DNA from: Bacteroidota bacterium
GTDB taxonomy: Bacteria > Bacteroidota > Ignavibacteria > Kapaibacteriales > DASPKH01
Reading direction: 5' to 3'
DNA length: 64,000 nt
Assembly (NCBI GenBank): GCA_040386315.1
Contig: JAZKFS010000020.1
Span: 4,620-68,619 of the forward strand
Shown here: in pieces, positions 1-64,000 of the stretch
Layout of the letters: every line of letters starts with the position of its first letter
Numbering within the stretch: the first letter of the stretch is position 1
The notes under the pieces: model-generated
Database searches by the model: none
Seen by the model: only the letters and a program-made list of their open reading frames with translations
Told to the model about the DNA's origin: nothing
Program-made: the position numbers and the translations under genes

Positions 1-1660
1 TGCCTGTATTATTACGGAAGGTAAAATGAACAGTTTTTTTCTTTTCACTTGCTACTGATAGAACTTTATCCGACGATTTATCACGATAAGCAATTCCTGC
101 AATATCCGAAGGATAGGTAAGTGTTGCTGGCTGTGACATCATAATATAATATCCGTTTCCCGCTCTCATTGAATCAAGCGCTTTTATGCCGAGCGCAGGC
201 CAATATACTTTTCCGTCATTATCCCGCGCCGCTACCAATGCTGTAGAAATTCCGCCAAGCGCACTTGCAATATCAATATTCGACCTGCGCAAATACGAAA
301 CAAGATTCCAACCCTTTTCAAGTGAAAGTCCTGTTGCTTCAGGAATTGATTTTAAACCGCGAATAGGCAATGCACTTCCTGCCAACATATATGCCTGATA
401 ACCATGCTGAAAATTCCATCCTCCAATTTCATTAATTCCAAGCGACGGCCAGTAAATATCACCCGCTCCATTTTTCATAAGTAAAAGCGATGGTTGGATT
501 GTCGCCGTAATTACATCAAGATTTGTTGTTTCGGGCAGGACATAGCTTGAAAAAGTATTCCATCCGGCATTTAAAGAAAGCGTTTGTGTCATATTTACGC
601 GAACGCCAAGCGAGCTGAGAACATACACATTATTTTTTGAGTAAAGCGCTGAGCCGCTTTGATATGTAGCAAGTGCATTGTAGCTTGTTCCGGTTTCCCC
701 ATCCCAAACCTTGTAAAGTAAAGTATCTCCCGGCGCAAATCCGTCTTTAATTGTGGTCTGGTCATTATCGCCCCAAACGGTCAGTGTGAGATTTTCACCT
801 TGCCACATGCCATAGCCACCGGAAATTGTATCTGCTCCGCTTACAAAGAAAACCCCGACAGCATCGCCTTTTGTAAGTAATCGCGTCCCAGTACTTGGCT
901 TGATAGCTTTAGGAATTGCAATAGTTGCGCTATTTCCTGTATTTGATGTGAAATTCCAAGTATCTGGTGGTGCAGCTGAAACTAAGCCATTTAATGTGAT
1001 AATGATTGAATCTGACAAGCAATTTACATTATATGTTCGTAAAACTAAATTAGCAGTATAGCTACCTGGATTTTGTGCAGTGAATTGAATTTTAATACTA
1101 TCTTGAGGGGAGGTAGTAAGAGGAAATTTATCTTTATTGATAATTACAAATGGTGAAGCTGTTGAAACAGAGGTTATAGTAACTGGAATTCCAGACTGAG
1201 AAAGTTGTATTGTAGTATCAATAATTTGCGTAGAGGTTTTAGATAGATTTATCTGGTTAGGTAAAATCTGTCCATTCTCGGGTCTATACAAAACTACAGA
1301 CTCACATTTGACTACTAAAGCAAATGTGTCACCATTGCCAGTAGTTAATTTGAAAGTATGTAAAAATAAACCTGATGTTTGAGGAGTACACCCCACTGCT
1401 GATGAGATAGCTCCACCAGCGACCAAAACAGTATCGTCTAAACGTGCTTTATTCATTTGGAAGATGCCACTACTTTCAGGCGCGAAGTTTCTTATTGAAA
1501 GCGCACTTATCCCGAAGTTTTCAAAAGTAACAGCTAATACTTTTGAATTTCCTACACAAATTTTACCAAAATCTAATGTATCAGGATTAAAGCCTACCTG
1601 AGCCAAGGCAATATCAAATGAAAAAATGAGGAAAGCAAATAAGAATAAAATTCGCTTCAT
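1..1660 (-). CDS. secreted repetitive beta-rich protein, N-terminal ~553 aa; gene runs off the window start (C-terminus missing)
   Basis: Reverse-strand ATG at 1658-1660 gives MKRILFLFAFLIFSFDIALAQVGFNPDTLDFGKICVGNS, a clear signal peptide. I translated about 100 codons by hand with no stop. Absent from the ORF track because there is no stop codon inside the window. Confidence 0.6.
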   Translation of the reverse strand, partial: MKRILFLFAFLIFSFDIALAQVGFNPDTLDFGKICVGNSKVLAVTFENFGISALSIRNFAPESSGIFQMNKARLDDTVLVAGGAISSAVGCTPQTSGLFLHTFKLTTGNGDTFALVVKCESVVLYRPENGQILPNQINLSKTSTQIIDTTIQLSQSGIPVTITSVSTASPFVIINKDKFPLTTSPQDSIKIQFTAQNPGSYTANLVLRTYNVNCLSDSIIITLNGLVSAAPPDTWNFTSNTGNSATIAIPKAIKPSTGTRLLTKGDAVGVFFVSGADTISGGYGMWQGENLTLTVWGDNDQTTIKDGFAPGDTLLYKVWDGETGTSYNALATYQSGSALYSKNNVYVLSSLGVRVNMTQTLSLNAGWNTFSSYVLPETTNLDVITATIQPSLLLMKNGAGDIYWPSLGINEIGGWNFQHGYQAYMLAGSALPIRGLKSIPEATGLSLEKGWNLVSYLRRSNIDIASALGGISTALVAARDNDGKVYWPALGIKALDSMRAGNGYYIMMSQPATLTYPSDIAGIAYRDKSSDKVLSVASEKKKTVHFTFRNNTG

Positions 1661-1749
1661 TAGTAGCTCCGGGGTTGTTTTATTATCGTTTAGGTATTCC
1701 TGAAAATTAAGAAATAATTTTTCATTTAAATATCAATTCTTTTAAAAAC

Positions 1750-2565
1750 CTACTTCATCTTCAAAAGATACGTCGCCTCAAGCGCAAGGATTTCCTTCAC
1801 GCCGGGAATGCTTTTCAAAGGAGTGAGCGGAATGGCGGGCAGCCCGAACTTCATTTTAAAAACCGGGCGCAGCAGGTAATAATCTTCGCGCACAATATCG
1901 TAACCCGCCGAGCGCGCCGCTTTTAAAAACTTCCCCGCCGACAGGCGAATTCTTTTTAAACGATGCACTTCCTCCTTATCCACCTCATGCGCATCGCCCG
2001 AATCCACAATCGCGCTGAAAAACGGTTCCGGCAGCAGGTGCACATACGGCAGCTTGCCGAGCGCATTTTTTAAAATGTGCTGATGCCCGCCATAGGGCGA
2101 ATTATACGGCGGAAACGTCACGAGCAGGTGCCCGCCGGGTTTCAGCACCTTGCGGATATTGCGGATGGCCAGCTCCGCGTCGTCCAGGTGCTCTATCACA
2201 TCACGCAAAATCGCCAGGTCAAACGCATTCCGCCAGTGCCCCTTCGGCTCCGCACCTAAAATATCATGCTCGCTGAATTCAATGCCAAGCCCGAGCTTAT
2301 TGCTAATCTGCTGCCCGATGCCGATGCGGTACGTCGCAATATCCGTTCCCGCCGTCAGCCCCGCACCCGCCTCTTTAAAAGCCATCAGAACGCCGCCTTC
2401 CGCCGCGCCGATTTCCACCACCGCGTCCCCGCTTTTAAAGCCGCCATGCTGCCGCACATACGGCACCAGCACATCGCGCCCCAGCTGAAACTGATAGCCC
2501 CAGTAATATTTGTCATTTGACGTAATATCGGGCGCCGCGTTGATTGTTTGTAATATATCGGGCAT
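1750..2565 (-). CDS. class I SAM-dependent methyltransferase
   Basis: Motif I VVEIGAAEGGVLMAF, LKPGGHLLVTFPPY post-motif, 271 aa. Last gene of the glycosyltransferase operon. Confidence 0.8.
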   Translation of the reverse strand: MPDILQTINAAPDITSNDKYYWGYQFQLGRDVLVPYVRQHGGFKSGDAVVEIGAAEGGVLMAFKEAGAGLTAGTDIATYRIGIGQQISNKLGLGIEFSEHDILGAEPKGHWRNAFDLAILRDVIEHLDDAELAIRNIRKVLKPGGHLLVTFPPYNSPYGGHQHILKNALGKLPYVHLLPEPFFSAIVDSGDAHEVDKEEVHRLKRIRLSAGKFLKAARSAGYDIVREDYYLLRPVFKMKFGLPAIPLTPLKSIPGVKEILALEATYLLKMK

Positions 2566-2613
2566 TGTTGTTTTTAAAATTCTATTTTTTAAATGCTTTT
2601 AAAAAGTATTGTC

Positions 2614-2632
2614 ATTCCGGCTTGTCCGGAAT
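2614..2632. repeat. perfect hairpin ATTCCGG-cttgt-CCGGAAT belonging to the GTCATTCC...GGAATC palindromic family
   Basis: seen directly; shares its arms with the TIRs of the adjacent element. Confidence 0.6.
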
Positions 2633-5116: not shown

Positions 5117-5119
5117 ATT

Positions 5120-5911
5120 TTAAAACCTGTATTGTAGTAAAAAGGAAACAAGCATATTGTGGATATACCCTTCGTGATCATCTGGATATGGTAGTGGAGC
5201 TTCGCTATTGTCAGGAGTAAAGAGTTCACCTCGCGCGTGATCGCGGCCGATTAGATTGACTATGCCATATCCGGCACTAAAATTAACATAAATCGGGTCG
5301 GAAATTTCACCATCTATACCAAGGCGTACAGCGCCGCCAAGACGGAAGGCGTCCGGTTTTTTCTCTCCATGTCCTATATCTAAAACTATATTATCGCCCA
5401 ATCGAACCCAGCGAAAATCAAACTGCTTGGCAATAATAAAGGCTCCTCTGGCTTCTATACCTGCATATATCCGCGCATCTCCGGGTGGATACTCTAAGAA
5501 CGCATATTCTGTACCAAGTACAAGTGTCGGCATATCTACAGGATATTTAATAAAGTATGTGGACGCGGCGAGTTGGATACGCTGTACACCACGCAGGAAA
5601 TAATAATCCAGGCCGGTGGTTATTCTCAGCTTTCTCTTAGTATCTATGCCGTACAGCATCCTTAACGATAACCCTACCTGCTGGCCGTCAAATCCCGCCC
5701 CGGGCACTTCGCCTTCCTGATGCGGCACGATATTTTCAAGTGCGGCATTCTCGTTCACGATCCACATAGTCGTCAGACCGCCGGTAAGCTGGAAATTCCG
5801 GTTGGTCTGCGCTTTTAAAGGTATAGACAAAAGCGCTATAAAAATAACGGCAAATGCGGTTTTATACAATCGTAATGCGATATGATCCATTATATTACTT
5901 TTTAAAAGCAC
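5120..5911 (-). CDS. outer-membrane beta-barrel protein (unknown function) embedded in the glycosyltransferase operon
   Basis: signal peptide, alternating amphipathic pattern, C-terminal ...LLQYRF aromatic terminus; 263 aa. Confidence 0.6.
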   Translation of the reverse strand: MLLKSNIMDHIALRLYKTAFAVIFIALLSIPLKAQTNRNFQLTGGLTTMWIVNENAALENIVPHQEGEVPGAGFDGQQVGLSLRMLYGIDTKRKLRITTGLDYYFLRGVQRIQLAASTYFIKYPVDMPTLVLGTEYAFLEYPPGDARIYAGIEARGAFIIAKQFDFRWVRLGDNIVLDIGHGEKKPDAFRLGGAVRLGIDGEISDPIYVNFSAGYGIVNLIGRDHARGELFTPDNSEAPLPYPDDHEGYIHNMLVSFLLQYRF

Positions 5912-10579: not shown

Positions 10580-13500
10580 TTAGTGCGTTACAGTAATTGT
10601 GCGAACGATTACTGTTTCACCAGCAACGAATTTTACAAGATACTGTCCGCTTGGAAGTGTGCTTGCATTGAATGTCAATTCCTGAGTTGCTCCAGCTACT
10701 GCTCCACTAACAAGAGTTTGTACTTCCTGTCCAAGAGCATTAAATACTTTTACAGTAGCTACACCAGCATTAGGCATAGAATATGTAATTGTAGCAACAT
10801 TTGAAACCGGGTTTGGAGATACTTTTACATCAAAGTTAGCTGCACCATTGCTTGCCTGAAGCAATTTAATAGTACCTACTTTCTTATCTGCAATTTGAAC
10901 GCTCTCTCCTTTTCCAATATTACCAATGATTTCGCCTGTAGCTGCATTTACCACTGTATATTGAGCATTTGTGTTTTCAACTGCTACGTTTACAGGATAT
11001 TCTGCACCCTGGATTCTGATCGCTGCATTACCAGTAGCAACACTGCTGTTATTAGTAAAGCGTACATCGAATAGATCAGCCGGAGGTAGTGGCGGTAATT
11101 CAAATGATTCAGTATTTACTGTTGGATTTGCTATGTATAATGAACCATTATGTGTAGCATCAGTAATACTGATCTTTGCACTATTTGCATATACTTCCTG
11201 ATTGCTGACAGTATTAGCACTATTTCCACGGGTTTCAGCAATTAGCTTAAGGAATGCTGAACCTTCAGTTACTTTTAACCAGTAGCCAAGCCCTGGAACG
11301 AGTTCAGAAACTTCAACATACCCACGATCTGTCACATATCCGTACACTCCACCAGTTCTGCGTGGCGTCGGCTGTCCAGCAATTGGATCAAACTGAATTC
11401 TGTCAATATTTACCGGTACTGATAAACTACCGATAGTATTCCATCCGGTTGAGATATTTACTTCATCGCGGAAATCAATTCTCTGAAGGCGCGTACCAGC
11501 AACTTTATTGTCAACTACCGGGCCAAATCGAACAAAGTATCCAATTCCAACTTTAGGAACTGCTGCATCCTGATAAATTCCTTTTGAGTAAATAATCGGT
11601 TGCTCAGTTAAGCGATTAGGATAGATATCATCCCAGCTCGTGCTTGACGGACGTACCGGAAGAGAAAGTAAATTCCAACCTCTTCTTGTTACCGGATATT
11701 CAATTACTTTTGGTAATGTATATTCAATAATAAAGGAGCTAATAGCAGCATCGTTAATTGTAATTGAGCGACGTGTACCACCTAATCCCGTTCCTGCTGT
11801 ACGCAGGTCAAAGCTAAAGCGTGTTCCATTTAATGTATCACGAATAAATAGTTGTCCTTCGCTTGGGAAATCTTCGGTATCATACGTGACCGTTACCTGT
11901 GATGTCGTAAAGCCAGCACCACGCTCAAAACGTACTTTATAGATTAGCGTAGTATCTGCATTAACGTTCCGTATATCACGAGATTCATACATTCCTGTTA
12001 AATCTCCCAGGCCATTTACGTGATCTGTAACTTCAGGATTTGTGCTGTATAAACGTGCGCTGAAAACTCCTGTGCCCTGAGGATCAGGATATGGAAATTC
12101 TCCAAACAATGTATCTACACCATCTGTTGCACGTAATCCGGTTCCGATCATTAATTTTGAAGTAACCGATCCGGCACCAACACGTGTAATATCAAAACGG
12201 ATACCTGTTCCACCACCATTTGTATTATTTGGCTCGTTCGGACGGCGAACATTGATATATGTTACTTTCAAACGAACCGGTGTAAATTCTGCAGATGCTG
12301 AACGAAATGTGATATAGCCCACATAGATACCTGTAGCATCCAAATCGTCCTTAATCTGAGGATCAAGTTCATTTGGATCTACTACGATACGGAAATTCAA
12401 TAATGGATCTTTCTGTGTTGTTACAGTTTGATCGGCATTTTGAAATCCAGGACCTCCAGGTCCAAGAATACCATTATCAATGTAATCTATCTCACCAAAT
12501 CTTCTAGCAGAAGGAATTGGGTTTTTTGCGCCAAAGGTTAAAAACTTTAACCATTTTGAGCTTGACTCAACACTAATATCTGTGAGGCGTGTAAAAGATA
12601 TTGACGGATCCGCGATAACATTGATCGCCTGTGTACCCCGGCTGTTTGCTAAATTTGGATTGATTGTTGCGCCATCTTCTACTACTATTGGAGTAGTTAA
12701 CTCCCATAAAGTATTGGAAAGTTGACGCACTTTAGCATCTAAACCAACATTCGGTAAGAAAGAAAAGCGCGGAACATCTGTAACTACTGCATAAATCACA
12801 CCCGGCTTAATCGGTTCTGCCGGATTTGAAAGACGATCTAATCCAGCAAGTCCAAAATTGAGGTCACCTACTGCCGGAGTAGGATACTCAGGAGTTCCTG
12901 GGAATGGGGACTGCTGAGCTATATTTAAGTCATTATACCGTAATGTATCGTTAGTAATAATGATAGGAGTATTTGTTGTACCAACTCCTGAGCTTGTTCC
13001 TACTACACGAAAACGGATATATAATAATTCCTGAAACTCACGTGCATTACAATCAACAGATTTATCATATGGATCTGTTTGTCCTGCTGCGGTAGTCGGA
13101 GCTAAGGGCTTTGTAGAAGCTCCTGCAATACGGATTCTTCTACCGAAGAAGCGGTTAGGAGTTACTACACCAAGACTTGTCTGATATGTATCATCCTCTG
13201 TATCATCAAAGCTAAGATCAAATTCTCTTGCAAGTGAATTAGTATCACTGGAAAGCGGGCCAAAACGCTCAAGGCCTACTGCTCTAAAAATACGCTCATC
13301 GTATTGTACTTTAAACTGAAAGCTATAAATCGGCGTAGCATTGAACCTAGGGTCAATACCATTTAAAAAGCAATTTTTTATAAATACAGGCACAAGGATT
13401 TCCCGAGGCTCACTATTTAAATTTATTGCTTTCGGTACATATATCCGGTCATCCGGATAATTTGTCCCATTCCCAGTTGAGTTGGGATTTGGACGGGATA

Positions 13501-13669
13501 TCAAGCTCAATTGTGGAACTTGCGGTCTAAGTAGCTGTGCCTGAGCAAATGAGCTGCCACAGATGACCATGCCCATAATCAAAGCGAAAGCTTTCAGGAG
13601 ACTATTTCTCCCTTGTAACGGATACCAGTTTTGCATAATGCTTTCTCCTAATTTTGTAAATAGGACCAT
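10580..13669 (-). CDS. large T9SS cargo protein (1029 aa) with ELPPLPPADLFDVRF motif
   Basis: signal peptide; C-terminal T9SS CTD (...TVKVFNALGQEVQTLVSGAV...GQYLVKFVAGETVIVRTITVTH); no TTTTAAAA octamers in 3.1 kb. Confidence 0.75.
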   Translation of the reverse strand: MVLFTKLGESIMQNWYPLQGRNSLLKAFALIMGMVICGSSFAQAQLLRPQVPQLSLISRPNPNSTGNGTNYPDDRIYVPKAINLNSEPREILVPVFIKNCFLNGIDPRFNATPIYSFQFKVQYDERIFRAVGLERFGPLSSDTNSLAREFDLSFDDTEDDTYQTSLGVVTPNRFFGRRIRIAGASTKPLAPTTAAGQTDPYDKSVDCNAREFQELLYIRFRVVGTSSGVGTTNTPIIITNDTLRYNDLNIAQQSPFPGTPEYPTPAVGDLNFGLAGLDRLSNPAEPIKPGVIYAVVTDVPRFSFLPNVGLDAKVRQLSNTLWELTTPIVVEDGATINPNLANSRGTQAINVIADPSISFTRLTDISVESSSKWLKFLTFGAKNPIPSARRFGEIDYIDNGILGPGGPGFQNADQTVTTQKDPLLNFRIVVDPNELDPQIKDDLDATGIYVGYITFRSASAEFTPVRLKVTYINVRRPNEPNNTNGGGTGIRFDITRVGAGSVTSKLMIGTGLRATDGVDTLFGEFPYPDPQGTGVFSARLYSTNPEVTDHVNGLGDLTGMYESRDIRNVNADTTLIYKVRFERGAGFTTSQVTVTYDTEDFPSEGQLFIRDTLNGTRFSFDLRTAGTGLGGTRRSITINDAAISSFIIEYTLPKVIEYPVTRRGWNLLSLPVRPSSTSWDDIYPNRLTEQPIIYSKGIYQDAAVPKVGIGYFVRFGPVVDNKVAGTRLQRIDFRDEVNISTGWNTIGSLSVPVNIDRIQFDPIAGQPTPRRTGGVYGYVTDRGYVEVSELVPGLGYWLKVTEGSAFLKLIAETRGNSANTVSNQEVYANSAKISITDATHNGSLYIANPTVNTESFELPPLPPADLFDVRFTNNSSVATGNAAIRIQGAEYPVNVAVENTNAQYTVVNAATGEIIGNIGKGESVQIADKKVGTIKLLQASNGAANFDVKVSPNPVSNVATITYSMPNAGVATVKVFNALGQEVQTLVSGAVAGATQELTFNASTLPSGQYLVKFVAGETVIVRTITVTH

Positions 13670-14879: not shown

Positions 14880-16823
14880 TTAACGAATTACAACAAGTGT
14901 TTTATTCATTGTCATACCTTCTCCTTGTAGGCGATAGGTATATGTACCGGCTCCTACTGAATTACCGCTGTCGTCTGTTCCATTCCATTCAGTTACATTC
15001 ATTCCCTTATCCATCAGACCTGCTTTTAAAGTTTTCACTTTATTACCAAGCATATCAAATATAGCAAGTTCGTAATTTCCATTTTGTGGAATTGCAACTG
15101 TAATAGAAGTTGTATTAACTACAGGATTTGGATAGTTAGATAATGCTTGTGTATTTGCATTTTCATCCTTATTTACCAATATCGACTGTCCTGACTTTTG
15201 ATTATCATTAAATCGAACTTCATTTATTGTTAAGCTTGCATCTGAAGTTTTTACAGTAATATAGGCAATTGGCTCGTTTGCATTAAATTCGCCAGTTGCA
15301 CTGATTACTACAGTACTTCCATTCCCTTCAATAAGCACCTTGTTTTCACCAAGTTCTACGCCACTAACTTCAAGAATCTCTCCGTTCACGTTGAATTTGG
15401 TTGCAATAGCGCCTTTAGCAAAACCATTTAATTGTACAGGGATACGATATGTATTTCCATCTACATTAACTGGTGTTCCGATTGCTACATCATTTGCAGA
15501 CTTTTCATTAACACCAGCACGTCCGTAAGGGATAATGGTGTCAAGCAACCAAGGAAGTGTTGGTACACGTCCTGACATGTATAGCATAATTAAAGCAGCA
15601 TCATATTCCGTTGCTTCGAAGAAGAATGATGGATTTCCTGCAAGAAATGGCAAAGAATTATCTGGTGCCACATTTGTTAAATCATAATCAGACAGATTAC
15701 GATTTATCACCGAGCGACGGTAACGTGGTACATCAGTTGAGTTATCAGCACTTCTTGTAGAAAAATAATACCGACCGTTATGATTTACATCTCCATGAAA
15801 AGCATTGCGCTCGCGAAGACTATCTAATGGACGATTCATTGCTTGTGCACGTAGGATAACGCGAGCATCATTCACTGTTACAAAACGATTCTGTGGTAAT
15901 CCACGGTGCTTACCAACCTGTGAAAGATCAGCATCGCCATCACCCCAACCACTTACAAGAAGACGTACATTTACACTTAGACGGACAACAGTGTCACTAC
16001 CACCTGAAGGCTGCCATAAATTTGAAAGGCGTGTACTTGTACGAGCTGTATTAATGTTACCATTAAACTCAAGTGCATTAATATAATCTCCATTTTCCCC
16101 TTTAATTCCAACTGACGCGCCTTGAGTTACTACAGTTGAACCGTTTCCACCAATTTGTCCGTATGCAAATTCAATATCACCTTGAAAATTGTTTGTATTT
16201 CCTAATCTTAGGCTATCTGACTCATATAGATAAAGTTGAAAATTAGCAACACTTGATGGAATAAGCTCATTATTAATATTCAAATTTTGCCATTGCACTA
16301 TAAATGCATTTCTGAATGTCCCGCTTCCATCATTTACAGAACGTGTTCCATAAGAAATCTCTGATGGCAAATACTGTGATTCACCAAGTGTTCCCGGACC
16401 TTTACGATAATAGTGATCTCCAAAAAATGGAGCAACAATATTTACCGGTTGTGTATTTGTAAACAGTGACTGAGGATTATCTGCCGGAATATTAGGTGGC
16501 TGTGTTTTCGTAAACAACACAAATCCATTAATATTTATCCAGACATCACTATAAAGCGTACCATTATAAGAAAATTGGAATGGTAGATTAACTCGAACAT
16601 ACCCATCATCTCTATCAGCAGGATCACTTGATCCAATCTGTGGGGGAAGTCTAAAGTCGTCAGCAGGCAGGACTGTCTTGCTAACCAGTGGAGTATAAGG
16701 ACGATTGCCTACTTTGGTAGCAGCCCTAAAATCCGCCGTAACATCTGCCTGTGCCTGTTGTGTAGTTGCGCCAAAGTATAAACCTAGAGCTGCACCTACT
16801 GCCAGAAGGACACGGTATTTCAT
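14880..16823 (-). CDS. T9SS cargo protein (647 aa), possible dockerin/EF-hand-like GDVNHNG segment
   Basis: signal peptide; C-terminal ...YELAIFDMLGNKVKTLKAG...GAGTYTYRLQGEGMTMNKTLVVIR CTD. Confidence 0.75.
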   Translation of the reverse strand: MKYRVLLAVGAALGLYFGATTQQAQADVTADFRAATKVGNRPYTPLVSKTVLPADDFRLPPQIGSSDPADRDDGYVRVNLPFQFSYNGTLYSDVWININGFVLFTKTQPPNIPADNPQSLFTNTQPVNIVAPFFGDHYYRKGPGTLGESQYLPSEISYGTRSVNDGSGTFRNAFIVQWQNLNINNELIPSSVANFQLYLYESDSLRLGNTNNFQGDIEFAYGQIGGNGSTVVTQGASVGIKGENGDYINALEFNGNINTARTSTRLSNLWQPSGGSDTVVRLSVNVRLLVSGWGDGDADLSQVGKHRGLPQNRFVTVNDARVILRAQAMNRPLDSLRERNAFHGDVNHNGRYYFSTRSADNSTDVPRYRRSVINRNLSDYDLTNVAPDNSLPFLAGNPSFFFEATEYDAALIMLYMSGRVPTLPWLLDTIIPYGRAGVNEKSANDVAIGTPVNVDGNTYRIPVQLNGFAKGAIATKFNVNGEILEVSGVELGENKVLIEGNGSTVVISATGEFNANEPIAYITVKTSDASLTINEVRFNDNQKSGQSILVNKDENANTQALSNYPNPVVNTTSITVAIPQNGNYELAIFDMLGNKVKTLKAGLMDKGMNVTEWNGTDDSGNSVGAGTYTYRLQGEGMTMNKTLVVIR

Positions 16824-16914: not shown

Positions 16915-19900
16915 TTAGCGAATAATCATCATCTGACGTGTCATATTCACTGAACCACTTGATAGACGCGCTACATACATACCTGACGGTAATGCTATGC
17001 CATTTCCATCTTTTGCATTCCATTCTATTACGTTTGCAGTCCCTGCAGGATAGAATCCGCTAAAGTCAGCTACTTTGCTTCCTAAAGCATCAAATATCTC
17101 AAACGTTACCTTTCCTTCTACAGGAAGAGTAAATTGCATTTTCGTGCTGCCTGAGAATGGATTAGGTATGTTTTGGAAAGATTCGCTATTGAATCCTGCT
17201 ACCGGCTGCTCGTCTTCTACGCCACTTGCAAAGTCATATCTAATAACGAAGTTGCTTATCGCGTCACGGAAGATAGTAACAGTAATTGTACCATCAGCAG
17301 CGCTTGTATCAACATTGATATCTTGAGCACTACGAGATGCACCTGTTCTCATATTGATCGCAAAGATATTACCCTGCGAGCTACCATCTAATAACCACCA
17401 TGAACTTCCTGCCGGGTTGCGTACTGCATCAGTTTTTGCTGGAACATTATTTTTATTCCATTTGATGGTTACAGGATAATTAGGCGAGGTATTTCCAACT
17501 ACATCACCCGCCTGGAAGCGGCCTTTGTAATATGCTTCGCCGATCACCCCAGCTACTGCTCTTGGGAAAATATCCCTTAGGGCACCATTTGACGAAGGTA
17601 TTGTCCAACGAGTGTCATACACATCAATTGGTGGAATTGGAGGTAATTCATATTCACAATAGTTAGAATCGAGTTTACCTACTGCATTTGCAGATTCACC
17701 AGTTGTAGCATTGACTGCTGTACCCCATTCAATAACCTGGAATGCGCCTTTGCTATTTGAAATAGTCATTGGTACAATAAAGTCTGTTGGTTGAGATACA
17801 TTAATTTTATAGCTGATTGTCCTTCTTGCTCCAGCTTTATCTGTTGCTGTAATGTAAAGAGTTGCTTTACCTTGAGCATCAAGAGTATCCTGGAAGTTCG
17901 TAGCTGTAATCGTCAGGGTTACTGAATCCGTTGTCTGAGGTCCCGAAATCACACTTGGGGTAACTGTAAAGCCACTTTCAGTTGTAATTGTAACGGTCTC
18001 ATTTCCATTAGTTCCCTTACGTGTAAGATCAATATCTCTAAGCACGATTGTGCCAGTATATGATTTACCAATCTCAATACATTGGACAGTCGGAATTGCA
18101 GTTAGGATCGGAGGATGATTTACAGCTATTACGCGAATTGTGAATGTGCGTACATCTGTTAACCCGCCTTCATCTTTTACAACTACCGTAAATGTTACGG
18201 TTGTATCGTTAAATGGCAAGTCTGTTACACGTGGTGTTCCAAAAAGAATTCCACTTACAGGATCAATCTTTAACCAGTTTGGCGCTGTTTTTGAATTGCG
18301 CACATCGAATGAACCTGCTTCATCTGCGAAACACTCATCACGAGGGATAAATGTGCTTGTATCGTTAGCATAAAGCAATTTGAATCTCTGATCCTGGCCG
18401 AAGTTTGGATCTGTTACACGGACTCGACGTAGTGAATCAAGAAGTGCTATATTATAATCCTGATCTTCGATTGCATCAGGGAAAGTAGCATTCTCAATAC
18501 GTGGAGCAACGTTTACCATTACACGGCGTGTAAGTGTATTAATTCTTCCATGCCCATCATTAACCACAAATGTTACAGTAGTATCGGTATTTAGAGCACC
18601 TTCAAACTGACGTACCGGGGTTAATAAATTATATGCCTGAGCTGAATCAATTCTAATACTTAGCTGCCCTGCTGATGTAAAGTCTGCACCAAATGGATCC
18701 AGAGCATTAAAATCACCATATTGTCTAAAGTACTGATTAGACATCCAGGTAGGACGTACTAGAGTCACTTCATCTGTTACTGAATCAGTTGGATTACGGC
18801 GAAGTGCAATTGATTGGAATCCATAAGCTGTTTTACCATAACGGAAGTCCCAACCGCGTGCTGCTGCTGCCGCATCTTCAGCTTCATCATCAGTCTGAAG
18901 GTCAATCTGGAAACGTAGTTTATCTGTTAAATTTGCAACAAGCATCTCATCTGTTCCACACTTATAAACATTCTGTGTGAAGATAGGATTAGTATCTGTT
19001 ACAAATACTCTAAACTGATATGTAGCTATTGAATTAGCACCTACATTAATTGTATCTTGTTGTAAGTAGCGTGCATTCGTTACATCATAAGCTTCCGCAT
19101 GGAAATATGGCGGGAAGATATTAATATATCGTGCAATAACACTATCAGCTAATCCTGCGGCACGTAATGAATCCAATGTGTTGATATTTGGCGGGAAATT
19201 ACGAATTCCTACCGTTACCATTTCACCACCCGGAACCACAAATGGATTCGTTGGACGGCCACCAAGAACACGATAGCCACGTGCACCGAATGCTGTTCCC
19301 TGTGAAGCATTGATTGTTGTATCAGTTAGCCAATATGAAAGTCCAGATCCCGGCTCTACACTATATGTATAGGTTAGTTGCGTGAAATCATTTGGAGTCA
19401 ATACTGAACGCGGATCGTAGAAGATATTTGAATCTACTCCGCTGATTGTAAAGATTGAATCACGTCCCGGAGCACGTTCTAGATCATTTACATCACGAGG
19501 ATATGTTCTATCTTCGCTTACAAAGATCATATTACGCAACTCTACCGGCAGAAGATTACGCAGGTTGTTGATGTTACCTGTAAATACTGGAGGAGGTGTT
19601 GAAACTCCTACGTTAAATACTAACGCATCATCATAAGCTGCATTTACACCTTCATTCCAAAGTACCGTACGAGAAACTACCCGAACTAAATCTCCATTTG
19701 CAACCGGTAACGCTCTATAGCGCTCACCAGCCCAGAAATTAATACGATTCACCCTGTTTTGATCAATCTGACTATTGTCATCGTTTGATATTGGAAGGCG
19801 AGGACGATTGCTAAACTGAACTCCAAACTCGTTTGGAGCGCCTAAGACATTCGAACCAGCCTCATACCGGCGTCCGACTAGTGCTGCCGCATCTTCATTT

Positions 19901-23775: not shown

Positions 23776-23885
23776 AGAACCTCCGTTTGGTAAAAAAGAA
23801 TTAACCACATTATTACTATTATTTATAATTTTTAAATCTGTTTTCATTATTTTCTTAACTGATGTACAGGTATGTATTGGATAGT

Positions 23886-24960: not shown

Positions 24961-24993
24961 TACACTTTTTAAAAAATCTTTTAAAAACTTGTT

Positions 24994-30839: not shown

Positions 30840-30843
30840 ATTT

Positions 30844-44936: not shown

Positions 44937-44951
44937 GTTCTTTTAAAAACG

Positions 44952-44986
44952 AAAAACGCCGCCTTTTTTAAAAGCAGCGTTTTTAA
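44952..44986. terminator. bidirectional terminator between convergent genes
   Basis: AAAAACGC...GCGTTTTT stem with flanking A/T runs. Confidence 0.5.
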
Positions 44987-45007
44987 AGATATTTTCTTTT
45001 AAAAATC

Positions 45008-46971: not shown

Positions 46972-49689
46972 ATGAAAAAAGTGCTTATTATTCTGGGCGG
47001 GCTGCTCGTTGTTTTTGTTGGCGCGCTCGTGGCGGTTCCTCTCTTTTTTAAAGATGAGATCACGGCGCTCGCCAAGCAGACTATCAACAAAAATCTGAAG
47101 GCGGACGCGGATTTTAAAAGCGTGGATGTGTCGCTGCTGAAGGATTTTCCGCGGCTGCATTTTGCGATGGAAAATTTTTCCGTGGTGAACCGTGCGCCTT
47201 TTAAAGACACGCTGGCGTACATTCCGTCGCTGGGCGTTTCGCTCGATGCGTGGGATTATATCACGTCGCAGAAGGTTTCGATTCTCGCGGTGAATGTCGA
47301 AAAGCCGCGCATCAACGCGCATATTTTAAAAGATTCCACCAAAAACTGGGATATTTTTATTGCCAGCGACAAGCCGGGTTTTGCTTCTACGCAAGTTGAT
47401 AAAATTTTAAAAGATATTTCCGGTGAACTCCAGGAGTTTTCGGTGAATGATGCGACTATTATTTTTACCGATGATGCGGGTAATAAATCTGCGCTTTTAA
47501 AAAACTTTTCAGCCAGCGGAAACGGCGATTTTTCAAAGCAGGTTTTCGTCCTCGAAACAGAAGCGAACGGGCTGACAAGCTTTACTTATGGCGGCATTCC
47601 ATTCCTGCGTGAAGCTGTTACAAAACTCAACGCCGACCTGCAATTTGACATGACGAAAAAGCAAATTCTTTTAAAAGAAAACAACCTGCTTTTAAACGAT
47701 TTGCCTGTTGGATTTTCCGGCACGGTTGACCTTTTGGAAAATGATGCGTACGGCGTGAACATAGATTTTAAAGCAAAGGAAAGTTCTTTTAAAAACTTTT
47801 TGTCGCTCATTCCGGCGTTTTACACGAATAAAGTGAAGGATTTTAAAAGCTTAAAAACTGCCGGAACGATGGCGCTTCAGGGAGCGGTGAAGGGAACATA
47901 TTCCGACAAAACTTTGCCTGGATTTAACGCTACACTTCAGCTCAATAACGGCATGTTTCAATATCCTGATTTGCCGTCGGCAGTGCGAAATGTTGCGGCG
48001 GACGTGCGTATAACCAATCCTGACGGCGTGCCGAATAACGCGGTTGTGGACGTTCGCCGCGGCCATGCGGAAATGGACGGTGACCCGTTTGATGCGAAAC
48101 TGCTTTTAAAAACGCCGATTTCTGACCCGTATATTGACGGTGCTTTTAAAGGAAAAATCAACCTTACGAACGTAAAAAAATTCTTCCCGCTTGAGCCGGG
48201 AACAGACGTGGGCGGAATTGTTGGTGGTGAGATAGTTTTAAAAGGAAACCTTTCGATGCTGGAAAATAAGCAGTACGAACGCTTCACCGCACAAGGCGCG
48301 GGCTATGCGCAAAACCTCGTTGTGAAAAGTCCGCAACTTGCCGAAACGGTGACAATTCAAAACGCAAATCTCGCTTTTTCGCCACAATCTGCGCAACTGA
48401 CAAACCTCGCGATGAAAATTGGCGGAAGTGATTTAAGTGGTTCGGGACGGTTGGATAATTTGCTGGCATATGTGCTTAAAGATGAAGAATTACGTGGCGA
48501 AATGAGCGTAAATTCCAACGTGATGAACCTCAATCCGTGGATGCCGAAGGAAACGAAAGCATCGCAGCAATCGGCGTCAACGCAAAAGCAATTTGACAAA
48601 ACGCTTGTGACGGATTTGCCCGAAAATCTGAATTTTAAAATCAACGCCGTGATGAACCGCGTTCTGTATGATAACCTGATTTTATCGAACGTGAAGGGAA
48701 TTCTGACGCTGGCGAATAAAATTCTGCGCATCGAGCAGAGCCAGATGGATTTGCTTGGCGGGAATATGGCGATGAGCGGCACGTACAATACGCAAACGCC
48801 GGGCAAACCGCAGTCGGCGCTGGATATGACGGTCACGAATTTCAGCTTTGCGGAAACCTACAAAGCATTTGCTACGGCGAAAGCGTTCGTGCCGTTCATG
48901 GAGCTGCTTAAAGGAAGCTTTAATGCGAAAATGCAGTTTGCCACTGACCTTGACGGAACGCTGATGCCGATTTTTCCGTCGGTGACGAGCGTTGGCGGGC
49001 TGGCGATTGACCAGGTGCGCGTGGAAGGTTTTAAGCCGTTTGCAAAGGTTGCCGAGCTTTTAAAAATGCCGGAGCTGGCGAATCCACAGCTTACGAATAT
49101 CAAGCCGAGTTATAGAATTGAAAAAGGGCGGCTGTTCCTTCCGGCGTTCGCTTTTAAAGTTGGCGATAAAGACGTGACGATGAGCGGTTCGAGCGGGCTG
49201 GACAAAACGATTGACTACGTAATGAATATGAAAGTGCCGACGGGAACGCTGGCGTCGCAAGCAAATCAGGCGCTTTCGGGGCTTTTAAAAACAAATATCA
49301 GTGCAATAAAAAGTTCGACGGTGGACGTTGCGATAAAAATCACGGGAACATTCGACAACCCTAAAATATCAACAACGCTCGGCAACGTCGTTCAAGACCA
49401 GATTGATAACACAAAACAAGCGCTCGAAGACGAAGCAAAGCGCCGCCTCGACGAAGAAAAAGCCAAAATTGACCAGCGTTTAAAAGATGAAGAAGCGAAA
49501 CTGCGCGACAAAGTAAACACAGAAGCGGAAAAAGCAAAGCAGCAAATCGAAGCAGAAAAAGAGAGATTGCGCCAAGCCGCTGAAGCCGAGAAAGAACGCC
49601 TCCGCAAAGAAGCTGAAGCGGAAAAAGAGCGTTTGAAAAAGAAAGCGGAAGAGGAATTGAAGAAGAGATTTCCGTTTAAAAAGCCGTAG
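46972..49689 (+). CDS. AsmA-family protein with C-terminal Lys/Glu-rich coiled-coil repeats
   Basis: N-terminal anchor MKKVLIILGGLLVVFVGALVAVPLFFKDEI typical of AsmA; C-terminal (EAEKERLRKEA)n. Confidence 0.75.
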   Translation: MKKVLIILGGLLVVFVGALVAVPLFFKDEITALAKQTINKNLKADADFKSVDVSLLKDFPRLHFAMENFSVVNRAPFKDTLAYIPSLGVSLDAWDYITSQKVSILAVNVEKPRINAHILKDSTKNWDIFIASDKPGFASTQVDKILKDISGELQEFSVNDATIIFTDDAGNKSALLKNFSASGNGDFSKQVFVLETEANGLTSFTYGGIPFLREAVTKLNADLQFDMTKKQILLKENNLLLNDLPVGFSGTVDLLENDAYGVNIDFKAKESSFKNFLSLIPAFYTNKVKDFKSLKTAGTMALQGAVKGTYSDKTLPGFNATLQLNNGMFQYPDLPSAVRNVAADVRITNPDGVPNNAVVDVRRGHAEMDGDPFDAKLLLKTPISDPYIDGAFKGKINLTNVKKFFPLEPGTDVGGIVGGEIVLKGNLSMLENKQYERFTAQGAGYAQNLVVKSPQLAETVTIQNANLAFSPQSAQLTNLAMKIGGSDLSGSGRLDNLLAYVLKDEELRGEMSVNSNVMNLNPWMPKETKASQQSASTQKQFDKTLVTDLPENLNFKINAVMNRVLYDNLILSNVKGILTLANKILRIEQSQMDLLGGNMAMSGTYNTQTPGKPQSALDMTVTNFSFAETYKAFATAKAFVPFMELLKGSFNAKMQFATDLDGTLMPIFPSVTSVGGLAIDQVRVEGFKPFAKVAELLKMPELANPQLTNIKPSYRIEKGRLFLPAFAFKVGDKDVTMSGSSGLDKTIDYVMNMKVPTGTLASQANQALSGLLKTNISAIKSSTVDVAIKITGTFDNPKISTTLGNVVQDQIDNTKQALEDEAKRRLDEEKAKIDQRLKDEEAKLRDKVNTEAEKAKQQIEAEKERLRQAAEAEKERLRKEAEAEKERLKKKAEEELKKRFPFKKP

Positions 49690-53020: not shown

Positions 53021-53039
53021 GTCGTTTTTTTAAAACGAA

Positions 53040-53076
53040 AAAAGGTTTTAAAAGAATTGCTCTTTTAAAACCTTTT
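53040..53076. terminator. bidirectional terminator: perfect 15-bp inverted repeat built around TTTTAAAA
   Basis: AAAAGGTTTTAAAAG-aattgct-CTTTTAAAACCTTTT. Confidence 0.65.
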
Positions 53077-53102
53077 GCTTTTTAGAATCTATTTTTAAAA
53101 AC

Positions 53103-62735: not shown

Positions 62736-62737
62736 CT

Positions 62738-63421
62738 TCACGGGATCACCATCATCTGTTGAAGCGCTTCGCCGGAATTCGTGAAGAGCCGCACCCAATA
62801 CACACCCGCCGCAAAATTCACATCCGGAATAATTGAAAATGTATGAATCGTTGCTGTCTGCTCGCCAAGGTCTTTTAAAAGAATTTCTTTTCCCAAAAGC
62901 GTATAAAAACCAAACGTAACATTTGACGTTTTATCAAGCCGGTACGCCCACGTAATTTCCTGCCCGCGCGATGCCGGATTTGGAAAACCCTCTATCAATG
63001 TTGCGGGGCGAATGTATGGTAGTGGCGCACCAATTGATTCCGTGATAATTATTCCTTTAAAATCGCTCACCGCAATTCCGTCGATCGTCACATTTTTAAA
63101 AGAAATCTCACACACGGAATCCGAACCCGCAAGCGCTTCCCCTTTTAAAAATATCGTGTCGCGTGCCGAAAAACTGAACGAATAGACAGAATCATTTTCC
63201 CTTTTTAAAACAACAGAATCTGCTTTTAAAAACTCTTCGGGATAAAAAACCGTTGGATTGCTGAGCAAAAACTGTCCGGAAATTTTCACAATTTCCTCGT
63301 CAGGTTTATCAACGATCAGGCGCAATTCCACCTTCTCGCCAACGATCCCGTGCGCCGTATCAGACTGCGCGAATGCAAAAGTTTTTAAAAGGAAAAAACT
63401 AAAAAGTATTATTTTTTTCAT
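62738..63421 (-). CDS. T9SS C-terminal-sorting-domain secreted protein
   Basis: signal peptide MKKIILFSFFLLKTFAFAQ; C-terminal ...FGFYTLLGKEILLKDLGEQ...GVYWVRLFTNSG. Confidence 0.7.
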   Translation of the reverse strand: MKKIILFSFFLLKTFAFAQSDTAHGIVGEKVELRLIVDKPDEEIVKISGQFLLSNPTVFYPEEFLKADSVVLKRENDSVYSFSFSARDTIFLKGEALAGSDSVCEISFKNVTIDGIAVSDFKGIIITESIGAPLPYIRPATLIEGFPNPASRGQEITWAYRLDKTSNVTFGFYTLLGKEILLKDLGEQTATIHTFSIIPDVNFAAGVYWVRLFTNSGEALQQMMVIP

Positions 63422-63423
63422 GC

Positions 63424-64000
63424 TTATTTATCTGTAATAATAAATTCCGTGCGCCTGTTTTTCCGGCGATTTTCTTCCGTATCATTTTTTGCAACAGGGC
63501 TGTTTTCACCAAAACCTTTTGACTTCAGTCGCGACTTGGCAATTCCCATTTTTAAAAGCGCGTTCATCACCGATTCGGCGCGATCTTCGGAAAGTTTCAT
63601 ATTTGATTCTGCACTTCCCTCATTATCCGTATGTCCGCGAACTTCAATTTTCAACGAAGAATAATTTTTTAAGACATCTGCAATTTCCTGAATTCGTGGT
63701 TGCGATTGAGCTTTAATTTCCGCGCTTCCCGATTCAAATTCAATATTCACCAGCGCAATGCTTCCCGTTTCGTCAAACTTTGAAAAAACCGAGCGGTCGT
63801 ACTCGCCCGATGCTTTTAAAACGTCGCCCAGCTCGGGGATTTTTAAAATCACATTTGCCGTATGGAGCGCCTCGCATTGCGGCGGCGTATAGGTTATTTT
63901 ATAATAATTATTCAGCGAACGGTAAATATCAGCGAAAACGTACGGAAATTCCTTGTTGGAATAGATCCTGTAAAACCGCCCGCCGGAATATTGCGAAAGG
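63424..64000 (-). CDS. OmpA-family protein, C-terminal part (gene continues past the window end)
   Basis: OmpA-like domain IEVRGHTDNEGSAESNMKLSEDRAESV...; the reading frame stays open from 63852 to 64000 by hand translation, so the 142-aa ORF in the track is a truncation. Confidence 0.7.
   Translation of the reverse strand, partial: LSQYSGGRFYRIYSNKEFPYVFADIYRSLNNYYKITYTPPQCEALHTANVILKIPELGDVLKASGEYDRSVFSKFDETGSIALVNIEFESGSAEIKAQSQPRIQEIADVLKNYSSLKIEVRGHTDNEGSAESNMKLSEDRAESVMNALLKMGIAKSRLKSKGFGENSPVAKNDTEENRRKNRRTEFIITDK

Follow-up and report, generated by a model that had tools for sequence, protein, structure and literature searches.

The window analysed here, by which we mean the whole stretch of 64,000 bases (G+C of 43.2%), holds genes for GatB, an E1 dehydrogenase, a histidine kinase, an acetyl-CoA hydrolase, RidA, an AsmA-family protein and four secreted proteins, among others, and throughout it (1..64000) are dispersed 215 single copies of the 8-base palindrome TTTTAAAA, a density of 3.36/kb or about 3,360 per Mb. 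A mononucleotide model predicts 2.7 copies, giving an 80-fold excess, order-1 and order-3 Markov models predict 9.6 and 25, and dinucleotide-preserving shuffles (n = 100) gave 9.3 ± 2.8 with a maximum of 18. An earlier note on this DNA had claimed a strongly over-represented palindromic octamer, and the excess over every composition null confirms it; the maximal-order Markov comparison that it proposed is uninformative for the window (209 copies expected against 215), because the 7-mers themselves consist almost wholly of motif. Its hand counts were accurate for positions 1-3000 (10), 29869-30167 (7) and 37145-37336 (5), and nearly exact for the gene at 7203-9614 (9, given as about 10) and the AsmA gene (12, given as about 13). 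The isomer AAAATTTT is, as the note held, far scarcer than TTTTAAAA, and it is not enriched, but its count in the window is 10 and not about 2. The hexamer TTTAAA occurs 338 times in the window versus 57 for AAATTT.

The copies are independent 8-bp sites and not parts of transposable or REP-type repeats. Only the 8-mer and, weakly, the ±1 positions carry information (relative entropy outside the 8-mer of at most 0.26 bit, with a weak preference for Y at -1 and R at +1), no 14-mer was found in more than three copies in the flank analysis, and every 20-mer of the 64-kb window is unique. Among T3A3 runs, extension to at least T4A4 is strongly favoured (215 versus 21 bare T3A3), and one-mismatch neighbours, compared with an A4T4 control, are about 2-fold depleted at inner positions and 3-5-fold enriched at outer positions. 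A dispersed mobile repeat of the MITE, REP or BIME type, or the footprint of a transposon targeting or leaving TTTTAAAA, would fit an insertion in one spacer of the sister strain L081 (below) and the GC-rich hairpin repeats of some spacers, but we consider it scarcely credible: conservation ends at ±1-2 nt, about 60% of the copies lie in frame within ORFs without indels relative to homologues, and the flank analysis refutes this origin for the bulk of the copies. REP/BIME, Correia and other extragenic palindromic repeats likewise lie after stops and between convergent genes and can form hairpins or terminators, but they are 20-150 bp long with an extended consensus and strictly extragenic, whereas only 8 bp are conserved in TTTTAAAA.

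Within genes we counted 129 copies, against 15.3 ± 3.5 when synonymous codons were shuffled with the proteins kept and 4.8 ± 2.1 when codon order was shuffled; the excess thus remains after control for Lys, Phe and Leu usage. Two reading frames are occupied, as had been claimed, xxT-TTT-AAA-Axx (n = 51) and xTT-TTA-AAA (n = 78), and the TTT-TAA frame is not used inside genes (n = 0). The permissive codon contexts are filled in 129 of 147 cases (88%; 51/54 and 78/93), with FK dipeptides encoded as TTTAAA in 88 of 91 cases and LK as TTAAAA in 120 of 167. LK and FK are found at 1.68 and 1.53 times expectation while KF and KL are depleted, and together with amino-acid replacements in GatB this supports the suggestion that the motif causes the FK/LK richness of the proteins. 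The gatB gene carries four coding copies on the minus strand (at 28489, 28567, 28660 and 28947, within 28489..28954), all conserved in L081, and three of the four needed replacements (K307, K403, F432/K434) at columns that are poorly conserved among 119 homologues. The AsmA-family gene (46972..49689, plus strand) has 12 coding copies and uses 12 of its 16 permissive contexts. Copies in genes arise via point substitution, synonymous where possible, and otherwise by Phe-Lys or Leu-Lys replacement at weakly conserved positions.

A word of no function, produced by neutral context-dependent mutation bias or as a compositional or codon-usage artefact of an A/T-rich, Lys/Phe/Leu-rich genome, would agree with the general enrichment of A- and T-runs (TTTT and AAAA, 2.7x in the window), with the enriched outer one-mismatch variants and with the rapid turnover of spacer copies described below. 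We regard this as highly improbable, since the excess survives the dinucleotide, order-3 Markov, synonymous-codon and codon-order nulls while AAAATTTT is not enriched, and the artefact reading is already largely refuted.

The filling of permissive contexts and the mildly costly replacements are best explained by a near-deterministic force acting per site. Such a force could come from a methyltransferase-linked repair ratchet, an adaptation of Elhai's HIP model, in which an orphan N6-adenine methyltransferase would recognise the inner TTTAAA (DraI-type) or the full octamer and mismatch correction, either methyl-directed or site-directed, would convert near-cognate sites toward the motif as a strong bias at each site. 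The extension of T3A3 and the depletion of inner one-mismatch neighbours are consistent with it, and the nesting of a 6-bp core inside a contiguous palindromic octamer recalls CGATCG within GCGATCGC, the cyanobacterial HIP1 (PMC4390886). The prototype of a ratchet is very-short-patch repair at CCWGG in E. coli (Dcm/Vsr), which converts near-cognate sites to the methylase site and so raises their genomic count. The CCWGG excess is modest, and this sole well-documented case needs deamination of 5-methylcytosine; because TTTTAAAA has no cytosine, Vsr-type models are excluded and the Vsr-like endonuclease put forward in the earlier note does not fit. We know of no repair ratchet based on adenine methylation. 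The 64-kb window plus 44 kb of related loci (~108 kb from the species group) contain no recogniser protein, DNA methyltransferase or competence gene that we could find, and the two methyltransferase-fold genes of the window (1750-2565 and 60878-61762) are found in glycosyltransferase surroundings and are members of small-molecule/FkbM families. We rate the ratchet as unlikely.

Spacers contain 80 copies in 4 kb (~20/kb), about 9-fold denser than genes, and the motif makes up ~16% of spacer DNA. The density is alike in divergent (25/kb), convergent (28/kb) and tandem spacers, and copies also occupy the centres of divergent promoter-region spacers, which argues for a role at the level of DNA and not of the transcript. 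Seven copies (29916..30163) lie in the 299 bp that separate gatB from a divergently oriented metallophosphoesterase gene, where those 89-115 nt from the nearest start codon are probably outside any transcript, and five (37156..37327) in a 192-bp divergent spacer, the central ones 66-118 nt from either start codon. Behind the RidA gene are four copies (53028..53100), two of which form the arms of a 16-bp stem followed by a U tract (53045-53076; -21 kcal/mol, z = -4.95), so that the terminator stem pointed out earlier is real. A 71-bp convergent spacer has three (44941..45004), one 3-4 nt past each stop and one in the loop of a central hairpin, and a 98-bp spacer has four (27228..27296), one directly adjoining the TGA stop of an aminotransferase gene; in L081 the latter spacer has an insertion of ~85 bp with three further copies. 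Separate GC-rich hairpin repeats are present in some spacers. Spacer copies arise by substitution and small indels and are poorly conserved in position (15/26), with 10 of 20 ancestral sites lost on one branch.

Copies are also placed at gene ends. At 16 of 32 gene ends in the window TTTTAAAA lies 0-8 nt after the stop codon, where 6.9 are expected under random placement, and in a second genome at 10 of 15 (3.5 expected). The true TAA stop falls inside the motif in four genes: the copy at 5118..5125 contains the stop of gene 5120-5911 and precedes the ATG of the following gene by 1 nt, that at 24992..24999 the stop of the E1 dehydrogenase gene (L081 has TAG and no copy), that at 30842..30849 the stop of the histidine-kinase gene 30844-34071, 2 nt past the TAG of a convergent gene, and that at 38609..38616 the stop of the acetyl-CoA hydrolase gene 37337-38614. 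This placement, significant in both genomes, could reflect an architectural or punctuation element, in which an abundant nucleoid-associated or boundary protein on the flexible T4A4 step, or the DNA or RNA structure itself, would mark gene ends, insulate transcription units and aid termination, with coding copies selected for site density. The high density in all spacer types, the copies in terminator stems and loops and a weaker placement within 22 nt before starts are in its favour, and neighbouring centres in the window are always at least 11 bp apart, which suggests that the footprint spans roughly one turn of the helix. A role in nucleoid structure has also been proposed for HIP1 (PMC5861425). 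The spacings in the window show no helical phasing, however, copies 9 bp apart occur in L081, the internal TAA favours none of the three frames of the upstream ORF and spacer positions are poorly conserved. A boundary role also leaves the filled codon contexts and the altered proteins unexplained, and we find this explanation doubtful.

Upstream of genes, a copy lies within 30 nt of the start codon in 23 of 40 genes, and 21 of 34 gene 5' ends in the window have one within 22 nt (14.3 expected, P = 0.004). An RNA-level signal could account for this, since the word is palindromic and UUUUAAAA would appear in every transcript whatever the gene orientation, as an A/U-rich ribosome (S1) landing site for the Shine-Dalgarno-poor mRNAs of Bacteroidota, or as an RNase cleavage or processing site. 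Bacteroidota rely on A/U-rich, unstructured leaders, which counts for such a signal. It is nevertheless very unlikely: in the second genome the bias at 5' ends does not reach significance (8/15 versus 7.2), copies lie in the centres of divergent spacers and past convergent gene ends, a signal for cleavage or initiation would do harm within ORFs, which are saturated with the word, and an exact 8-bp palindrome is characteristic of sites recognised in duplex DNA.

Comparison with relatives showed that the trait is restricted to one narrow clade and is missing from the nearest syntenic relatives. The abundance of TTTTAAAA extends to two further genomes of the species group, at 85-91% nucleotide identity, whereas five syntenic relatives (GatB 68-69% identical) at a comparable G+C carry 0-1 copies over 10-21 kb, which counts further against a word of no function; the loci with the trait are the window, L081, L249/L252, L250/L253 and L248/L251, and those without it are L082, L084, L254, L255 and L256. 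The enrichment is not local to the window, as related genomes have the same density in syntenic DNA and ~8 kb past the right end of the window. Its sudden, lineage-specific appearance would fit the gain of a single enzyme system, as in the repair ratchet. Conservation of motif positions, a test proposed in the earlier note, was clear between strains, with 28 of 34 coding copies kept (82%) against 4551 of 13250 other 8-mers (34%) in the same alignments, which again speaks against an absence of function. A strain-specific SLFN_AlbA_2 gene of the JGI genome has one copy in 1.8 kb; few copies are expected in newly arrived DNA, as is known for uptake sequences (PMC2817400; PMC3497702).

Four Lys-poor secreted-protein genes, all on the minus strand and together 13.6 kb, have no copy of TTTTAAAA. 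One encodes a protein with a signal peptide and is truncated by the left edge of the window (3..1690, GC3 0.28), and three encode T9SS (type IX secretion) cargo: 10580..13669 (1029 aa, Lys 3.0%, permissive sites used 0/2), 14880..16823 (647 aa, Lys 2.9%, with 0 copies also in the JGI orthologue) and 16915..23847 (2310 aa, Lys 1.6%). The last is vertically inherited and fast-evolving, and the motif is likewise absent (0 copies) from the L081 and L252 orthologues. Avoidance of Lys explains the absence only partly; permissive sites in the T9SS genes were converted in 0 of 3 cases and FK/LK hexamers in 6 of 16, versus ~84% elsewhere. A uniform repair bias should have loaded these fast-evolving genes, and neutral mutation also sits poorly with resident genes that never acquired the word. 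The earlier note had overlooked this absence, as well as the higher density in spacers, the placement directly past stops and the confinement to a narrow clade.

Among known systems, the description of a HIP1-like element outside cyanobacteria holds: TTTTAAAA is a dispersed, hyper-abundant palindromic octamer that recurs independently thousands of times, within genes as well as between them, as do HIP1 and the HIP variants, with enriched one-mismatch variants, a 6-bp restriction-type core and replacement or absence in close relatives. At 80-fold and 3,360 per Mb it is within or above the range of HIP1 (300-2,700 per Mb, observed/expected 55-228; PMC4390886), whose coding copies are also conserved beyond background, taken as an argument for selection (PMC5861425). 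It differs in its phylum, occurring in a Bacteroidota/Ignavibacteria-Kapabacteria-like MAG, in its A/T-only composition, to which m5C/m4C methylation and deamination-repair models are inapplicable, and in its concentration in spacers, its position directly after stops and its near-saturation of permissive codon contexts. No earlier report of a HIP1-like element with an A/T-only word, or in the phylum Bacteroidota, was found in the literature. The USS of Pasteurellaceae and DUS of Neisseriaceae are likewise short words specific to a species group, at about one or more per kb, confined to tolerated reading frames, scarce in strain-specific genes and paired in inverted orientation as terminator stems. 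They enrich the encoded peptides ~2-fold at poorly conserved residues (PMC2817400), close to the 1.53-1.68x for FK/LK, and share the graded enrichment of near-matches (PMC1939737). They differ in being non-palindromic words of 9-12 nt that are 3-4x sparser and come nowhere near filling their permissive sites, and their role is backed by a measured bias in uptake and by known competence machinery. Chi and KOPS or architecture-imparting octamers, read by RecBCD/AddAB and FtsK as marks of 'self' or chromosome orientation, are over-represented 8-mers as well, but a palindrome cannot carry orientation information. Chi and KOPS are strand-asymmetric and only few-fold enriched.

Taken together, we tentatively favour, with a probability of roughly 0.4, that TTTTAAAA is a lineage-specific genomic word similar to HIP and uptake sequences, maintained by drive or selection at the DNA level via a putative sequence-specific protein. 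This protein would bind DNA as a dimer, since contiguous 8-bp palindromes typify restriction/methylase-type or similar recognition, and the word may accumulate through biased fixation on the DNA itself, by molecular drive or weak selection. Uptake and recombination would favour DNA bearing it, or such DNA would gain in some other way from being read as 'self', and the accumulation would not stem from roles in individual genes; the placement next to stops and in terminator hairpins would be secondary, tolerated or co-opted as in DUS pairs. HIP1 is reported to enhance natural transformation and is a proposed uptake sequence (bioRxiv 10.1101/2024.09.10.611283; 10.64898/2026.06.24.733823). Against this genomic-word reading, the density above that of USS/DUS and the 88% filling of permissive sites suggest that a per-site force fits better, because an advantage in uptake gained per fragment would be expected to wane well short of such saturation. 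The position 0-8 nt after stops hints at a local function that it does not predict, and the vertically inherited secreted-protein genes, motif-free in three genomes, the rapid turnover of spacer copies and the failure to find a recogniser, methyltransferase or competence gene in the ~108 kb also count against it. So does the fact that, to our knowledge, the known uptake sequences are not palindromic, and we know of no report of uptake specificity in Bacteroidota, nor did a literature search find one. For the organism itself, the density of TTTTAAAA is high enough to dictate codon choice and some of the amino acids of its proteins.

The palindromic octamer TTTTAAAA occurs 215 times in the 64 kb of the window (3,360 per Mb) at a G+C content of 43.2%, and it is by far the commonest 8-mer there, the runners-up being its own one-base shifts. 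The local hand counts from which the earlier note had proposed a HIP1-like element were right to within one or two copies. Base composition predicts 2.7 copies and Markov models predict 9.6 (order 1) and 25 (order 3), and dinucleotide-preserving shuffles (n = 100) gave 9.3 ± 2.8 copies with a maximum of 18. A maximal-order Markov expectation, which that note had suggested as the yardstick, comes to 209 against 215 observed, and is not valid as a refutation of the enrichment because the 7-mers TTTTAAA (277) and TTTAAAA (255) are almost wholly motif-derived; lower-order Markov, dinucleotide-shuffle and codon-aware nulls were used in its place. Synonymous-codon shuffling within each gene, by which proteins and codon usage are kept, gave 15.3 ± 3.5 copies (maximum 27) and codon-order shuffling 4.8 ± 2.1, against 129 observed in coding DNA, and the enrichment thus survives control for amino-acid and codon usage. 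The excess amounts to 80-fold over the mononucleotide expectation, 23-fold over dinucleotide shuffles, 8.5-fold over the order-3 Markov model and 8.4-fold over synonymous-codon shuffles. The isomer AAAATTTT is present in 10 copies in the window, and TTTAAA occurs 338 times versus 57 for AAATTT. A pure compositional artefact or neutral bias is poorly supported.

TTTTAAAA is its own reverse complement, a perfect palindromic octamer, and the information is confined to these eight bases; the flanks carry at most 0.26 bit, with T or C favoured at −1 and A or G at +1, and a weak asymmetric preference appears as T5A4G/CT4A5 in 77 of the 215 copies. A fully palindromic 10-mer was rejected, since complementary flank pairs fall below expectation. 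Maximal runs of the type T≥4A≥4 number 215, bare T3A3 21 and T3A≥4 or T≥4A3 about 100, and because these counts reverse those predicted for selection on TTTAAA only, the unit selected is the full octamer (at least 8 bp) and not the DraI-type hexamer. Measured against the corresponding variants of the control word A4T4, single-mismatch forms are 3-5-fold commoner if the change is at an outer position and about 2-fold rarer if it is at inner position 2, 3 or 7. Any given motif-containing 14-mer is present at most three times, and the whole window has no repeated 20-mer of any kind, which together with the flank information rules out a MITE, REP or other mobile repeat; dispersal of the word within a longer mobile unit is a poorly supported account. 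The copies are independent sites that arose by substitution, plus small indels in spacers. The smallest distance between two copies in the window is 11 bp, and neither helical phasing among close copies nor short-range periodicity was found there. The window also holds a perfect 30-nt inverted repeat (2681-2710 / 2796-2825), each arm of which is a GC-rich hairpin (GTCATTCCCCTGAAAAGGGGAATCAACG), a similar hairpin nearby (2610-2632) and, in another spacer, a 44-nt imperfect inverted repeat (45489-45603); these repeats resemble small elements of the REP/MITE kind, separate from the octamer.

Based on 41 gene models, spacers contain 80 copies in 3,970 bp (20/kb, 16% of spacer bases) and coding DNA 129-131 copies in about 60 kb (2.2/kb), and four copies span stop codons. 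Within genes, 51 copies lie in the frame xxT-TTT-AAA-Axx (Phe-Lys) and 78 in xTT-TTA-AAA (Leu-Lys), and the frame TTT-TAA is absent; a genuine TAA stop codon falls within the motif in four genes (at 5118, 24992, 30842 and 38609). Phe-Lys is encoded by TTTAAA in 88 of 91 cases and Leu-Lys by TTAAAA in 120 of 167, and the octamer is carried by 51/54 of the Phe-Lys and 78/93 of the Leu-Lys contexts in which the protein permits it. The richness in FK and LK remarked upon in the earlier note is borne out by dipeptide observed/expected ratios of 1.68 for LK and 1.53 for FK, among the most over-represented, with the reversed dipeptides depleted (KF 0.72, KL 0.77).

The imprint extends to a housekeeping enzyme, as judged on an alignment of GatB with 119 homologues, where three of the four motif copies needed amino-acid replacements, all in variable columns. 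At K307 the other homologues have I, M, V, Q, C or A and none has K; K is found in 11/119 homologues at K403; and for F432 and K434, F occurs once in its column and K lies outside the six commonest residues. A word-level nucleotide force overrides synonymous-codon neutrality and part of the protein constraint, and the coding copies persist. The canonical pattern of −1 slippery heptamers is X_XXY_YYZ, which is matched by the U_UUA_AAA read in the 78 Leu-Lys-frame copies (for example 28567-28574 in gatB); judging by sequence, a genome full of such heptamers may bear a frameshifting cost or be adapted to it.

Gene ends are a preferred site. A copy starts 0-8 nt past the stop codon at 16 of the 32 testable 3' ends in the window, where random placement of the same copy number in the same spacers gave 6.9 ± 2.0 ends and never as many as 16 in 2,000 trials; the corresponding count for the JGI genome, a motif-rich relative, is 10/15 against 3.5 ± 1.5 expected. 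These stop-proximal copies do not belong to the leader of the next gene, because they are also present at convergent gene ends, and a backup-stop role was rejected because the internal TAA shows no frame preference. At 5' ends, no more than 22 nt separate the end of a copy from the start codon in 21/34 cases versus 14.3 expected (P = 0.004), a bias that was not significant in the JGI genome. Stop-proximal placement is not described in the papers on HIP1 and uptake sequences that were consulted. Copies 14 and 36 nt upstream of a tRNA-Arg(CCG) gene (24677-24751, minus strand), which is flanked by the TPR and E1 dehydrogenase genes, were also observed. Motif copies form a terminator stem at 53045-53076 (16 bp, −21 kcal/mol, z = −4.95), and further copies lie in terminator loops. 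Density is alike across spacer types (divergent, 19 copies in 752 bp; convergent, 5 in 178 bp; tandem similar), and because copies occupy the centres of divergent spacers the force acts on DNA rather than on transcripts, as far as spacer geometry tells; a purely RNA-level signal, in which the word would work through transcripts, is poorly supported.

The host is placed near Kapabacteria/Ignavibacteria by its type IX secretion system (T9SS) cargo genes and GatB matches. In housekeeping DNA the window is 91% identical to a sister strain (L081) and 85-89% identical to the JGI genome (L249, L252; also L250/L253), and the loci of both share the trait, with 31 copies in 11.6 kb, 113 in 21.6 kb and 62 in 22.2 kb and 17-20 copies/kb in spacers. 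The excess is thus not confined to the window, in agreement with the genomic trait that had been proposed; the motif-rich related loci extend about 8 kb past its right end. Pairwise alignments with these relatives show 28 of 34 coding sites intact, against 34% for other 8-mers in the same alignments. In spacers the difference is weak (15/26 intact versus 38%) and turnover is rapid: a three-way alignment reveals an insertion of ~85 bp with three copies and one gain through three adjacent substitutions. The site 24945-24958 reads TTTTAAAA in L081, AATAAAAA in the window and ATGAAAAA in the JGI genome, so that three of four neighbouring bases changed along a branch of about 4-5% divergence, which suggests a strong drive or a templated event. 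At the E1 dehydrogenase stop (24992-24999), TAA lies inside the motif in the window and the JGI genome and is TAG in L081 (TTTTAGAA), so that gain or loss of the motif is tied to stop-codon identity.

The closest other relatives (L082, L084, L254, L255, L256) have GatB 68-69% identical and the same gatB-ilvE-E1-TPR-giant-T9SS gene order, with 0-1 copies of TTTTAAAA and 0-7 of TTTAAA in 10-21 kb each. None of 80 more distant genomes examined among the matches listed in the GatB contig scan (at most 61% identity) is enriched. Because these relatives and distant genomes lack the excess, the word appears to have spread genome-wide in one narrow clade. Avoidance of TTTAAA in the relatives was considered as a hint of DraI-type restriction-modification and is inseparable from general TpA/TTAA depletion. 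When viral and metagenome collections were scanned for clusters of three copies, no contig of the window lineage was found; the matches were either tandem arrays or contigs rich in A/T and poor in ORFs, whose arrays are helically phased at 11/21/32 bp (Ga0041059). Ten Ga0041059 contigs (L206, L138, L166, L192, L179, L157, L215, L223, L196, L245) have dense TTTTAAAA arrays at 26-40% G+C, with 61 copies in the 5.5 kb of L206; these are probably eukaryotic satellite or curved-DNA arrays, a different phenomenon unrelated to the window lineage. Three viral contigs, L088 (IMGVR_UViG_3300048828_000831), L127 and L121, are moderately enriched in TTTTAAAA/TTTAAA (12 copies in 7.4 kb at 39% G+C; TTTAAA 21-26 versus AAATTT 1), and most copies in L088 lie in two arrays with a spacing of 12-13 bp.

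Secreted or T9SS-cargo genes at 3-1690, 10580-13669, 14880-16823 and 16915-23847 (13.6 kb in total) are free of the word, and their L081 and L252 orthologues have 0 copies as well. Their proteins contain 1.6-3.0% Lys and their GC3 is 0.22-0.28, and since an AAA lysine codon is required in either permitted frame, lysine avoidance would explain most of the absence. Permissive contexts are used in 0/3 cases, and FK/LK are in motif-type codons in 6/16 versus about 84% elsewhere. Horizontal transfer of the 2310-aa gene was rejected, as its position is syntenic in all relatives and its divergence keeps pace with that of its neighbours (protein identity 81% to L081 and 46% to L082; 98% and 68% for GatB), and T9SS cargo status as the cause was rejected because other T9SS genes hold 7-8 copies. 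Genes have been exchanged between strains in a cassette-like manner at conserved flanks, window 49854-51950 and 56406-59120 corresponding to L249 1210-3501 and 8162-9994: a BNR/Sortilin T9SS gene takes the place of PD40/OmpA, and an SLFN_AlbA_2 gene that of the DUF2961 T9SS gene. The strain-specific SLFN_AlbA_2 gene of L249 has one motif in 1.8 kb at 39% G+C, and at least one motif-free gene of the window is vertically inherited. The ORF at 63424-63852 makes up the 3' portion of a VWA/OmpA gene that is longer and continues past the right end of the window; the protein is 344-494 aa in related contigs.

HIP1 of cyanobacteria is reported at observed/expected ratios of 15-300 and 300-2,700 copies per Mb (PMC4390886, PMC5861425). 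The window element, likewise a hyper-abundant and conserved palindromic octamer in independent copies dispersed over genes and spacers with no longer repeat, agrees with the view of a HIP1-like element outside cyanobacteria. However, TTTTAAAA is neither GCGATCGC nor a one- or two-step derivative of it; given the different word and a non-cyanobacterial host with T9SS cargo genes and Kapabacteria/Ignavibacteria-like GatB, the element is HIP-like and not HIP1. Uptake sequences and HIP1 are its nearest counterparts in behaviour. As in uptake sequences (USS/DUS), the word is over-represented, limited to two frames and accompanied by enrichment of the encoded peptides, with GatB copies at variable columns; uptake sequences show about 2-fold enrichment of encoded peptides and lie at weakly conserved residues (PMC2817400). 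Terminator pairs and graded enrichment of near matches are also shared with uptake sequences and HIP1 (PMC2817400, PMC1939737, PMC5861425). Uptake sequences are scarce in newly acquired genes, and the low count in the strain-specific SLFN_AlbA_2 gene may be a further likeness, but a vertically inherited gene is also motif-free. USS/DUS are asymmetric words of 9-12 nt in both orientations, whereas the core of TTTTAAAA is palindromic. REP/MITE-type repeats have a consensus of at least 20 bp and are extragenic, unlike TTTTAAAA on both counts, and Chi/KOPS-type octamers are strand-skewed, a polarity that no palindrome can have. Full-text literature searches brought up no description of TTTTAAAA as a genomic signature in bacteria.

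We propose that a dimeric sequence-specific protein would read the palindrome, and that copies would accumulate through biased fixation, drive or weak selection. Ranked first, with a probability of about 0.4, is a drive by self-recognition, through uptake and recombination of DNA. HIP1 has been reported to raise transformation and proposed as an uptake sequence (bioRxiv 10.1101/2024.09.10.611283; 10.64898/2026.06.24.733823); competence genes were absent from the sequenced regions, and near-saturation at 3.4 copies/kb points instead to a per-site force. That same near-saturation keeps alive two explanations that we consider unlikely. One is a methyltransferase-linked repair ratchet, although no DNA methyltransferase is present in the window or in L249/L252, and its Vsr-type form is excluded chemically, as the word has no cytosine; the other, of equally low standing, is an architectural or gene-boundary role. 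Beyond the uptake-recombination drive ranked first, a broader and rather doubtful proposal is HIP-type "genome barcoding" that arose independently and recently outside cyanobacteria, in which a dedicated protein would read a cytosine-free word site by site and the machinery would mark self DNA and punctuate gene ends. Since syntenic sister lineages are without the word, the responsible gene or genes should emerge from a presence/absence comparison, and if the barcoding reading is true, such a comparison would offer the first mechanistic access to the making of highly iterated palindromes.

What these palindromes do and how they arose has been debated for about 30 years without an answer, and to our knowledge they have been described essentially only in cyanobacteria. 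The present element is a second, independent case, from a different phylum and with a word of different chemistry, and the lack of cytosine removes 5-methylcytosine and deamination-repair explanations for this system. Its density equals or exceeds that of HIP1, and it is young enough for syntenic sister genomes without the word to exist, a natural comparison for finding the machinery. The DNA-level force strongly overrides protein coding, with permissive contexts nearly all used and Lys, Phe and Leu put into a housekeeping enzyme. In practical terms, the word offers a sharp signature for binning the lineage and for recognising foreign DNA within it. A phenomenon that has long lacked an explanation is thereby represented by an independent instance that contains no cytosine and is young in evolutionary terms.
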